A stretch of DNA of 49,568 bases, taken from contig MNYP01000147.1 of NCBI GenBank assembly GCA_001873135.1, forward strand, positions 1 to 49,568. The letters are read 5' to 3'. Source of the stretch: Helicobacteraceae bacterium CG2_30_36_10 (GTDB lineage Bacteria > Campylobacterota > Campylobacteria > Campylobacterales > Sulfurimonadaceae). The position numbers and the translations under genes are program-made. The notes under the pieces are model-generated. The model saw only the letters and a list, made by a program, of their open reading frames with translations, had not been told where the DNA came from and did no database searches. How positions within the stretch are numbered: the first letter of the stretch is position 1; the number at the start of each line of letters is the position of its first letter. Positions 1-47,410 of the stretch are shown here, in pieces.

Positions 1-34
1 ATCTTGGCATGTGGAAATTTCCACATGCCAAGAT
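1..34. terminator. Perfect 34-bp palindrome built from two inverted copies of the TTGGCATGTGGAAAT motif; probable rpoC terminator hairpin
   Basis: ATCTTGGCATGTGGAAATTTCCACATGCCAAGAT lies 15 nt past the rpoC stop; it may extend beyond the window edge, so no U-tract is visible. Confidence 0.75.
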
Positions 35-49
35 GAAAAGAGTTAAAGA

Positions 50-3000
50 TTAATTCTCATCACTCTTAAACATAATTTCTTGATTTTTATATATACCGGT
101 TCCAACAGGAATAGTACGACCAATGATTACATTTTCTTTTAGATTATTTAAATCATCTACTTTTGCCGATACTGCCGCTTCTGTCAATACTTTTGTTGTA
201 TCTTGGAATGATGCAGCTGAAATAATACTATCAGCACTTACGGCAGCTCTTGTGATACCGACCAAGAATGGTTCAGCAAGTGCTGGACGACCGCCAAGAC
301 GGATGATTTTTTCATTTTCTTGTGCGAATTTAGCTTTAGAAATTAAATCACCTTGAATAAATTTAGTGTCTCCGGATTTAACAATTTTAATCTGTCTTAA
401 CATTTGAGTAAATATAACTTCAATATGTTTATCTGCAATATTAACACCTTGTGAACGGTATACTTGCTGTACTTCACTTACTAGGTAGTTATAAAGTGCC
501 TTAACCCCCATGATACGTAGAAGTTCATGGGATGAAATAATACCACTTGTTAATCGCTCACCAGAGTGAACAAAGTCACCTGCACTTACAACAGGAACAT
601 GAGATTTATCAACAAAATAATCTTTAATAATTCCGTTCTCAGAAGAAACAACAATTCTTATTTTACCGCGGAGCAGTTTGCCGAAGCTTACCGTTCCATC
701 AATCTCTGAGATTAATGCAGTAGCTTTTGGACGACGACCCTCAAAAAGTTCAGATACACGAGGAAGACCCCCTGTGATATCGCTTGACTTTTGAAGTGCT
801 TTAGGTGTTTTAGCAATAATATCCGCAACTTTAACTTTTCCGCCATCAGCAACAAACAGAGATGACTTAGGATCAATTTGATATCTTAATAATTCTCCGT
901 TTTCGGTTGCTAAAACTATGGTTGGTTTATACTCAGCTGGAACATGGTCATTAATCATTAAACGAGTTTTACCCGTAAGCTCGTCAAACTGTTCCGTTGC
1001 CGTAGTACCAATTATAATATCTTCATATTGTACTGTACCATTCGCTTCTGTAATAACTGGGTTAGAATAGGGATCCCATTCAGCAATAACAACAGACTCA
1101 TCAGAAGACGGCTTAGCAATAAGTGTTTTTACATCAACACTCTCATTATCATCGGCAACGATTACAGAACCGCGTGCTATATAATGTCTCACCGCTTCAC
1201 GGTTATTGGTATCTATAACAGCTGCAAACAGACCTTTTTCAACAACTTCATATCCGGATTTTAGTCCTTCAAATCTTTCTAAGTAATCACCTTTAAGAAT
1301 AAAGTACTTAACTATACCGTTCTCTTTAGCCAAAATCTTTTGTGTAACAGGAGCACCATTAGCAACTAAAAGTTCAGATGCATAAGGGATACGACTTGGA
1401 ACATTCCAGCCGTCTTTAATAGTTTCAACAATAGACTCGTGTTCTTTTACTTGCAACCCATCTTCATATGGAAAGTAGTATTTACCTTCAATTTGTCCGC
1501 CAACACCAGCCAGCTCATTTGGCTTAGCAATTTCAATTTTACGAAGCGAATAGCGCACTGTCTCATTTTCAGAAACAACACTTACAATTACTTCATCATG
1601 AATGGTTTGTATTTCAATTTTTCCATCAAATGGTGCTTTGATTTTAGGTTCAACCAATAATACAGCAGCATTTCTACGGTTTGCAACTATATTTTTACCA
1701 TCTTTAGAAGCATAAGTTTTAAGGTTATAGTAACGTATAAAACCTTCTTTCTCAGCTACAACTTGTCTCTCTTGAGCAGTTGAAGAGGCTGTTCCACCAA
1801 CGTGGAATGTTCTAAGGGTAAGCTGTGTACCCGGCTCACCGATTGACTGAGCAGCAACAATACCGACAGCTTCACCTGTGCGAACTATATGACCGGTAGC
1901 AAGATTTACACCATAACATAGTGCACAGATTCCATCTTGGCTCTTACAAGTTGTAGGCGTTCTAATGTGTGCCGTTTTAATTCCAGCTTCTGCAATTACT
2001 TTGGCACTCACTTCATCAAGAAGAGTTCCCTCAGCAAAAAGAATCTCATTACTGATAGGGTCTATAATATCATCGGATAGTACTCTGCCATTAAGTCTGT
2101 CTTCTAAAGATTCTATTAATGTATTTTGATCACTAATATCTGAAATTTCAATTCCCTCATGAGTATGGCAATCATGCTCAACAACTTTAACATTTTGAGC
2201 AACATCAACAAGTTTACGAGTTAAATAACCGGCATTTGCAGTTTTGAGTGCGGTGTCGGCAAGACCTTTTCTAGCACCGTGGGTTGAAATAAAGTACTCA
2301 ATTACGTTTAGACCCTCTTTAAAGTTAGAGATAATAGGAGTTTCAATAATTTCACCACTTGGCTTAGCCATAAGACCACGCATACCAGCTAACTGACGGA
2401 TTTGTGCGGCAGAACCACGAGCGCCGGAATCAGCCATCATATGGATAGAGTTAAATCCAGCTTTATCACTCTGAACTAAATCCATCATCTGAGTCGCAAG
2501 AGTATTATTAGTATCAGTCCAAACATCAATAATTTTATTGTATCTTTCTTGTTCCGTTAATAGACCGGCTTCGTATTGTTTTTGAATTTCAAGTACTCGG
2601 CTCTTAGAATCAGCAATTTTAGCTGCCTTTGTTTCAGGGATAATAATATCTGCGATAGATATAGATACCCCTGACTCTGTAGCATGCTTAAAACCTAAGT
2701 CTTTCAAATCATCCAAAAATCTTGCTGTTACACCAATACCACCGTGTTTTTGAACATAATCAACAGCTTCATTGATATATTTTTTCTTCATAACTCTGTT
2801 CCATACTTCTATAGGAACAAAAGAAGGCAATATGTCTTTAAGAAGCATACGTCCAGCTGTTGTATGGATTATACGTCCATCAACACGAGTTCTAATTTTT
2901 GCATGTATATCTAGCGCTTCATGCTCTATAGCAATTCTTACTTCATCAACATTTGCAAAAAGTTTGTTAGAACCTTTAACACCATTTTTTTCTAAAGTAA

Positions 3001-46135: not shown

Positions 46136-47353
46136 TTAATCTAGCAATGAAAATATTTCATGCACATACCTCGGTTTTCTCATGCCAACAAGTATATAAT
46201 CAATACTACTTTTATTCATCAAAAACCTCAATGAACACGCTTGAATTGAACTATGACACTCTTTTAGTAACTCTTTAAATTTAACTCTAGTATTTTTAGA
46301 ACACTCATATGCTACCATACTTCTATAATCTTGCAAGAAAAGATCTATAAAGCTAAATATTGTCTCTTTATTTTCTTCATCAAGAACTTCTAAAGACTTT
46401 ACTATGTGAGGTAATATTTGAGAATATAAAAAAGAATCATAATCTCCAATCCAACCAAACTTATGCTTATTATCGTCTAATTGTTCTAAAAGATTAAATA
46501 GAGGTCTTAATAATTTATTGTCACTCACTTCCATTAACTCATTAAAATGATTATCGTATTGCATACTTTCATCATAATCTGCTAGCCTGTACATTAAGCC
46601 TTCATACTGTGCATTTAAAGGTCTATTTACAAGAACTCTTATTCCATTTTCTTTAGCCCATGAAGCACATTTTAGCCCATCTTGCTCAAGTAAATTTATA
46701 GGAAGTTCTATTGTAGAAAAACTATGCTTTTCATTTCCGACTTCTGCACACGCATCACTTGCTAAAGTCAATAAATCTTCGTAAGGTAAAAATTCTTCAT
46801 GATTACTTTTTTTTGAAAAACTGTTTGAACTAATGCCATAAGAACTAATTCTACCGTTTTGGACTTCTAATTCAAGTCCCATAAAAGCATCAAAGAGCCT
46901 TTTTTGCATCTCTTCTAATCGCTCCTCTTTATCAATACCTCTATTGATTGCATCTAAAAGATAGTATTCCGGATTATGCATTAAATAACAATCTAGTTTT
47001 TTCATCTGTAGTCTTTGAAGAGATTGAGTCAGTTGATCGTGCATAAATGACTGAGATATAGAGTGAAAACAATCTTGGCTATATTCAACGACCTCCTCAA
47101 AAGGGGTCTCTTTATGTAACTGCATGTTAGTATTTTGAATATAACCGAATTTACTGACAATTTCTATCTTAGTTTTTGTATCATCATCAAAAGTACTTAA
47201 AGCTAAAGCGATAGCTCTTTCAGCACCGCCATCCATGTAATTTGATGAAGTATCAATCATTGCAACGCCAGATACTACAGCTTCTCTTAAACTAGCAATA
47301 TGCTGAGGGTTGTTATCACTTATTCTATATGTTCCAAATGCGAAATTACTCAT
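46136..47353 (-). CDS. Aldo/keto reductase family protein
   Basis: FGTYR, IDTSSNY, SKFG, LDCYLMHNP, YGISSN, VGMR. Confidence 0.85.
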   Translation of the reverse strand: MSNFAFGTYRISDNNPQHIASLREAVVSGVAMIDTSSNYMDGGAERAIALALSTFDDDTKTKIEIVSKFGYIQNTNMQLHKETPFEEVVEYSQDCFHSISQSFMHDQLTQSLQRLQMKKLDCYLMHNPEYYLLDAINRGIDKEERLEEMQKRLFDAFMGLELEVQNGRISSYGISSNSFSKKSNHEEFLPYEDLLTLASDACAEVGNEKHSFSTIELPINLLEQDGLKCASWAKENGIRVLVNRPLNAQYEGLMYRLADYDESMQYDNHFNELMEVSDNKLLRPLFNLLEQLDDNKHKFGWIGDYDSFLYSQILPHIVKSLEVLDEENKETIFSFIDLFLQDYRSMVAYECSKNTRVKFKELLKECHSSIQACSLRFLMNKSSIDYILVGMRKPRYVHEIFSLLD

Positions 47354-47395
47354 TATTTGTTAATCCTATCTAAAATGAATTCATGCTCAAGTAGT

Positions 47396-47410
47396 TTGGC
47401 ATGTGGAAAT
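47396..47410 (+). repeat. Single intergenic copy of TTGGCATGTGGAAAT
   Basis: Exact 15-mer between the rplQ terminator and the AKR start. Confidence 0.85.

Follow-up and report, generated by a model that had tools for sequence, protein, structure and literature searches.

Why should one short word recur on both strands, within genes and between them, in a single stretch of bacterial DNA? The stretch, hereafter the window, comprises 49,568 nt and is contig C77 of genome G000 (Helicobacteraceae bacterium CG2_30_36_10), an assembly of 1.99 Mb in 167 contigs, with 36% guanine plus cytosine (GC) and 92% completeness; other G numbers denote the genomes of relatives. A first-pass annotation had noticed a repeated 15-mer in the window and proposed it as a candidate new self-DNA uptake signal, or else a genome-wide site for a DNA-binding protein, an interpretation that our results partly support. 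The word is real and apparently undescribed so far. It centres on the 10-mer GGCATGTGGA, and we give about an even chance to the reading that this is a putative methylation-linked mark of self DNA, preferred in uptake by a Campylobacter-type competence pilus. What speaks for such a mark is that the abundance of the word across relatives tracks two DNA methylases.

The word across the genome

There are 758 copies of GGCATGTGGA in G000, where it is among the most frequent 10-mers, and 794 of the 9-mer GCATGTGGA, likewise among the most frequent of its length. The 15-mer itself is not the unit: it has 102 copies against 758 of the 10-mer, and the true unit is the 10-bp core with weak flanks (y-t-t...a-w-t). 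The expectation of hundreds of copies, with perfect ones outnumbering those with one mismatch, was borne out, as all 30 single-mismatch variants of GGCATGTGGA sum to 276 copies, 103 of which are GGCATGTGCA. The inner core is the least variable part, since changes at C3 and A4 total only 1 and 2 copies. When the copies of G000 are aligned, information is limited to about 16 bp and distal AT tracts are absent. We rejected a drive by RCATGY or CATG palindromes, since ACATGT and GCATGC fall below expectation in G000.

The word is spread over 147 of the 167 contigs, with a median spacing of about 1.3 kb, and is not confined to one region. It is also neutral relative to the replichores: taking the G-rich strand as a GC-skew proxy for the leading strand, we counted 296 leading and 297 lagging copies on 120 contigs, against 16 and 5 for a control word resembling KOPS (FtsK-orienting polar sequences). 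A site of the Chi, KOPS or matS type was rejected, as there is neither replichore polarity nor confinement to one domain. In a check for depletion on foreign DNA, the seven zero-copy contigs listed were mostly housekeeping in look.

Most copies lie in genes. According to our own simple gene caller, which underlies all placement counts, 551 copies are in coding sequences (CDS), 189 are intergenic and 18 fall on boundaries; the CDS share is 73%, nearly all of it single copies. The 551 CDS copies compare with 40.4+/-6.2 under synonymous-codon shuffling, the background that the first-pass annotation had asked for, and 1.35 under codon-order shuffling. Two reading frames dominate, coding xPHA (237) and xACG (142), and have left their imprint on the proteome of G000, where the tripeptides PHA and ACG are 10.8x and 7.3x their expectation. 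When genes are ranked into quintiles by ribosomal-like codon bias, density drops from 0.59 per kb in the least biased to 0.05 in the most biased. Intergenic copies lie at a median of 29 nt past stop codons, and for 82 of the 189 an inverted partner lies no more than 40 nt away, compared with 11 of the 551 CDS sites, which agrees with the earlier impression of copies in genes, between genes and paired past stops. Convergent spacers hold 60 sites in 20.1 kb and divergent spacers 16 in 39.9 kb, i.e. the word is depleted near gene starts.

Such a sharp genome-wide motif, at sites common to up to nine carriers, might be kept by selection as the binding site of a protein that organises the chromosome or has a regulatory role. 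We consider this very unlikely, because the word has neither polarity nor domain, is depleted near starts and is repeatedly switched for other words between lineages. Three 18-bp tandem arrays are built on the word (G000:C67:3895-4005, C78:2150-2210 and C42:5750-5800), and one such array sits at the 5' end of a type II secretion pseudopilin gene.

Methylases, the pilus and a putative self mark

In the genus, probably Sulfurimonas, 21 of 194 species have at least 100 copies of the word, and the 10-mer occurs only 0-7 times in each of 16 genomes belonging to other families of the order. Carriers form one main group and a second, although this grouping differs somewhat between two of our comparisons. 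Close kin differ greatly in density, and the low-density genomes sit on three branches.

The first methylase is encoded outside the window, at G000:C29:1260-2513. It is a beta-class adenine methylase of 417 aa, whose best matches by sequence, profile and predicted fold are the Mod subunits of type III systems. Its nearest full Mod relatives (~44% identity) exceed it in length by about 200 aa, its DPPY and S-adenosylmethionine (SAM) motifs are intact, and no res gene lies beside it in the 10 loci examined, two of which are cut by contig ends. The sites of type III Mod enzymes are short and asymmetric and are methylated on one strand, in line with the title of the structure 4zcf. At a threshold of E<=1e-80 over 194 genomes, 10 of the 12 in which the word reaches 370 copies or more have this Mod-like gene and the other 182 lack it, and it occurs in both carrier groups. 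Genomes of the carrier lineages that have the gene (n=10) show a median density of 373/Mb and those that lack it (n=13) one of 99/Mb, kin being non-independent. Its slot is cleanly empty in G191, G188 and G169; in G102 other sequence occupies it, and the contig ends 166 nt further on.

The second methylase is a D12-class protein of about 335 aa that resembles hpyIM and lies mostly in the slot between dxr and tsaD. In G084 and G044 its gene adjoins an ICEA gene, the arrangement of the CATG-specific iceA1-hpyIM pair as given in excerpts of PMC4202330. Of 136 4-mers, CATG best separates 13 hpyIM-like carriers from 29 non-carriers (0.85 vs 0.66), and within the carrier lineage its value is 0.93 with the enzyme and 0.68 without. 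The specificity is thus likely to be CATG, to judge by sequence. Over the 16 of 24 genomes of the lineage table that were covered, hpyIM-like carriers (n=7) have 19-99 copies of the word per Mb, non-carriers (n=8) 218-599, and G209, without either enzyme, 3; that G103 and G044 have the hpyIM-like gene, and that G000, G180 and G082 do not, was established once the pattern had already been noticed. The cdsA-dxr-tsaD region is a hotspot of methylase and restriction genes. G000 has its dxr-tsaD slot empty and a C5 and D12 methylase pair upstream of dxr (G000:C73:3136-8361).

The inventory of competence genes proposed at first pass is in part complete. G000 has comEC, a secretin operon with PilO, T2SSE and T2SSF, several prepilins and, by domain content, a ComM-like ATPase; the secretin is found in 107 of 112 good genomes. 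The competence pilus genes are of the Campylobacter, or Cts, type. One prepilin precedes a priA-like open reading frame (ORF), recognised by eye, which is the position of the pilin Cj0683 of C. jejuni, described as adjacent to priA in excerpts of PMC10046745. Four pilins were rejected as receptor candidates, since their trees depart from the word: the FimT-like one, the one in the Cj0683 position, the PilV/W/X-like one and the major pilin. The label FimT-like is presumptive, Pfam giving only N_methyl; the tree of this pilin has a few word-concordant groups and equally many exceptions. In all 13 loci tested, its gene (G000:C92:119-778, or an orthologue) immediately precedes a 16S rRNA gene, and the protein is highly variable, with a tree in conflict with the species tree. 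A second FimT-like pilin, on G000:C43, adjoins HU-like and ParA/ParB-like genes and is possibly part of a mobile element.

How might these pieces fit together? The orphan Mod-derived methylase would act on an adenine of CATGTG/CACATG, the core that mutates least, and a putative uptake receptor would read the methyl mark together with the flanks. Biased uptake and recombination would then raise the word wherever proteins tolerate it, and paired copies would end up in post-gene hairpins. In lineages that lose the Mod-like methylase and gain a general CATG methylase, the advantage of the long word would be gone and the word would decay. Excerpts of PMC8468864, PMC10046745 and PMC8627207 describe a requirement for methylated RAATTY at the first step of uptake in C. 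jejuni, a case against which the word of the window had originally been contrasted. As to that contrast, the abundance of the word here follows two DNA methyltransferases, whereas none of the pilins compared behaves as a ComP/ComN-like receptor that cleanly tracks it.

Several observations weigh against a methylation-linked mark read by the pilus. Some genomes are rich in the word without the Mod-like gene, i.e. G102 (590/Mb, 99% complete) and G169 (218/Mb), as well as the incomplete G129 and G148 (190 and 168/Mb), and G209 lacks both methylases yet is nearly devoid of the word. The co-occurrence is seen among kin carriers and lacks a genome-wide control for the matching patterns of other genes, and the specificities ascribed to both methylases are our reading of sequences. 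On the side of uptake, dprA and comEA were not found in G000 by motif regex, the contig that bears the secretin (C18) has zero copies of the word, and none of six pilins, all highly variable and each compared in 28-30 of the 36 genomes searched, tracks it cleanly. This comparison left out PilY1-like and second FimT-like proteins, and no uptake receptor was identified among the six. The remaining points concern other words of the genus, described below. They mostly lack intergenic inverted pairs or hairpins. G163 has 413 copies of one of them, the palindrome TACATGTA, yet none of three pilins was found there, which also led us to reject pilus loss as the cause of word decay. In G041 and G016, complete genomes with 611 and 694 copies of TACATGTA, there are zero matches to PF01555, PF02086 or PF00145 (both have weak PF07669 matches), and G193, which has another word, gives no PF01555 match.

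These exceptions bear on a simpler alternative. The word might be a classical, methylation-independent DNA uptake sequence (DUS) or uptake signal sequence (USS), read directly by a minor pilin, with the Mod-like gene as a passenger of the clade; decay would follow where CATG methylation blocks the receptor or transformation is reduced. Every DUS-like feature of the distribution is found, G102 and G169, which have neither the Mod-like gene nor the CATG methylase, keep a high density, and TACATGTA persists without matches to three methylase families. We nevertheless hold this alternative to be unlikely. Against it stand the failure of all six pilins to track the word cleanly and a methylase confined to the richest genomes and found in both carrier groups. 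Furthermore, CATG is up where its methylase is present, which is not a prediction of blocking alone.

Methylase co-occurrence would also be expected under Elhai's model for HIP1 (highly iterated palindrome), in which a methyl-directed ratchet of repair or recombination makes the word within the cell, with no role in uptake. Mismatch-tolerant edges flanking an intolerant core fit this model, and the median spacing is near the ~1 kb that it predicts according to excerpts of PMC4390886. It does not, on the other hand, predict post-gene hairpins or a non-palindromic 10-mer, and regex searches of G000, at 92% completeness, found no MutL or MutS1 signatures and one MutS-type ATPase motif, likely MutS2. 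On balance a ratchet seems rather improbable to us, and the putative methylation-linked self mark remains our preferred reading.

Copies in the window

The counts that first drew attention to the word, made by eye, were all recovered. The perfect 15-mer occurs seven times in the window (4+, 17-, 17683-, 37436+, 37629-, 37650+, 47396+), and two more copies have two mismatches; in 100 shuffles of the window, 15-mers with at most two mismatches had a mean of 0.21 and a maximum of 1. The 15 copies of GCATGTGGA, 8 on the plus and 7 on the minus strand at the positions first given, compare with a shuffle mean of 0.21 and a maximum of 2 (100 shuffles), matching the original estimate of about 0.2. Seven of the 12 perfect 10-mers are in CDS and five are intergenic.

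Two inverted pairs would form hairpins with 15-bp stems. One, at 4..31, lies at the contig end, 18 nt past the rpoC stop (-25.3 kcal/mol); the other, at 37629..37664, comes right after the stop of the transketolase gene tkt (-27.8 kcal/mol). In the complete one of the two, a U-tract is not clear. The same hairpin is found at window positions 1-33 and at the end of G000:C85. Because both contig ends carry it, the assembly probably broke at the hairpin, and the window contig and C85 may adjoin. A lone intergenic 15-mer (47396..47410, plus strand) stands after the rplQ stop and before the next gene.

The CDS at 16329-18374 contains both a perfect 15-mer (17683..17697, minus) and a 10-mer core (17883..17892, plus). 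Further cores lie within an rRNA methyltransferase CDS (19977-20726; 10-mer at 20567..20576, minus), an ORF at 21088-21423 (9-mer at 21369..21377, minus) and a polyprenyl synthase CDS (9-mer at 40178..40186, minus); another 9-mer overlaps the start codon of the synthase (40458..40466, plus). A thioredoxin-like CDS bears a perfect 15-mer at 37436..37450 (plus), coding STCQ in three carriers; STCQ occurs in 0 of 29 non-carrier orthologues, where SIEQ is commonest. Transketolase has two 10-mers, each at a site shared by nine carriers: one at 38045..38054 (plus) codes xPHA and aligns without gaps to 44 non-carriers, the other at 38759..38768 (minus) codes xACG. A last 10-mer (41278..41287, plus), within the CDS at 40474-41457, codes xPHA at a site shared by five carriers.

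How did such copies arise? We aligned 14 genes near transketolase from 61 genomes, covering six CDS sites. Five of the six are gap-free, at all six the peptide is unlike that of most non-carriers, and the columns concerned are less conserved (0.65 vs 0.82). The alignments indicate that the word arose through point substitutions at tolerant sites, without indels. The word could otherwise have marked the ends of a mobile repeat, similar to miniature inverted-repeat transposable elements (MITE) or repetitive extragenic palindromes (REP), and inverted pairs and the few tandem arrays do occur. Since conservation stops at about 16 bp, with 73% of sites in CDS, nearly all single, and gap-free alignments at five of six, this origin is already largely refuted and we give it almost no credence; the longer conserved extragenic unit, inserted with indels, that typifies REP and MITE is missing.

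Sister words and known systems

A scan over 38 of 64 database parts found at least 119 inverted-pair loci. Of the 80 for which we tallied labels, 64 are named Sulfurimonas, Sulfuricurvum, Campylobacterales or Helicobacteraceae, eight 'bacterium', and eight belong to other phyla. It is from these labels, and from named homologues that agree with them, that we take the genus to be Sulfurimonas. Matches in a Bacteroidales metagenome-assembled genome were rejected, being a longer, unrelated, palindromic REP-like repeat in which the word is embedded by chance. Viral contigs gave 42 single 15-mer matches, with a second core in one. An out-of-sample trial on metagenomes yielded 4 copies in 825 kb and serves as a negative control only; generic Mod genes swamped its methylase search.

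Relatives have words of their own. TACATGTA reaches at least 200 copies in 26 of 194 genomes on several branches (control words 18-73), e.g. G041, G043, G046, G016, G053, G057 and G061; it is a HIP1-like word outside cyanobacteria. Among TACATGTA-rich genomes it overlaps with GGCATGTGGA only in G188. A 490-aa gamma-class methylase next to the CATG methylase was rejected for TACATGTA, not being common to five other genomes with that word. YTGCGTTT, counted genome-wide, has 2990-4202 copies in G070, G023 and G141, against 361-465 for controls. In samples of 80-120 kb the top words were TGGCATGT (G193), TGCGTGAG (G055), GCATCT (G192 and G047) and CGCTCATG (G023), and TGGCGTT is a possible further word in a sample of G012. 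G055 also contains a tandem repeat of about 19 units with a 306-bp period (G055:C1:417403-422917). The other lineage words exceed codon-shuffle nulls 2-12x. The suggestion that relatives would have dialects is thus supported as far as enriched words in sister lineages go; their kinship to GGCATGTGGA as dialects of one system is something we infer, and their hairpins are mostly missing.

Three known systems invite comparison, and our preferred reading would place the word between them. Excerpts of 10.1101/2025.10.24.684340 and PMC2817400 describe, for DUS/USS, inverted pairs after genes, reading-frame bias, tripeptide inflation, placement at poorly conserved residues and lineage variants. Our word shares these, its lineage variants being putative ones, with the DUS of Neisseriaceae and the USS of Pasteurellaceae, which are also non-palindromic words of 9-10 bp with hundreds of copies, more perfect than single-mismatch ones, genome-wide and without strand or replichore bias. 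It differs in sequence and phylum, in tracking DNA methylases, in having no ComP/ComN-like receptor among the six pilins compared, and in that hairpins are favoured by GGCATGTGGA and not by its sister words. With the CtsM/RAATTY system of C. jejuni it shares the phylum, a Cts-type pilus, a pilin in the Cj0683 position and an orphan adenine methylase co-distributed with the mark. Yet the word is a 10-bp asymmetric one and RAATTY a degenerate 6-bp palindrome, the Sulfurimonas methylase derives from type III systems, and the word changes between lineages. RAATTY itself does not appear to be the mark in G000, where GAATTC (283/376) and AAATTT (2689/2948) are below expectation.

The third system is cyanobacterial HIP1 with DmtA/DmtC. 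Excerpts of PMC4390886 report that HIP words are found together with methylases that act on a site inside them and are replaced by alternate words in some lineages, and excerpts of 10.1101/2024.09.10.611283 and PMC13756078 that methylated HIP1 raises transformation. Here too the word is abundant and probably contains a methylase site, some lineages use other words, and one of these, TACATGTA, is a HIP-like palindrome. Outside the full word, CATGTG is at 0.61x an order-2 model and 1.19x a maximal-order model in G000, thus without clear enrichment, as is the case for the internal methylase site of HIP1 (PMC4390886, in part). Unlike HIP1, a palindromic octamer, GGCATGTGGA is asymmetric and forms post-gene hairpins, and its putative methylase is of the Mod type.

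No paper in open-access full text, subscription journals not being covered, combines 'DNA uptake sequence' with Campylobacterota or Sulfurimonas, and none among the top matches listed in the open-access literature describes such a word in this genus. The excerpts of PMC12616744 and PMC12236230 name uptake specificity only for Neisseria or Pasteurellaceae, and the 5-methylcytosine motifs of S. denitrificans in an excerpt of PMC8112702 are unrelated to these words. DUS/USS words in the literature examined come from two families only, and Campylobacterota would be a third case.

We advance one broader proposal tentatively, as a possibility that we doubt more than we believe. Sulfurimonas might use a switchable epigenetic uptake code, in which, each time a methylase is gained or lost, uptake would drive a different word to accumulate (GGCATGTGGA, TACATGTA, YTGCGTTT, TGCGTGAG or GCATCT), rewriting hundreds to thousands of coding sites. 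If true, uptake sequences would have a third family, one that bridges DUS/USS, CtsM and HIP1 as a single phenomenon. An example from Campylobacterota, associated with a domesticated type III methylase, would connect the recognition of self by sequence with that by methylation, and across about 190 species one can follow how such a word is gained, decays and is replaced. It could also offer a practical route for transforming sulfur-oxidising Sulfurimonas.

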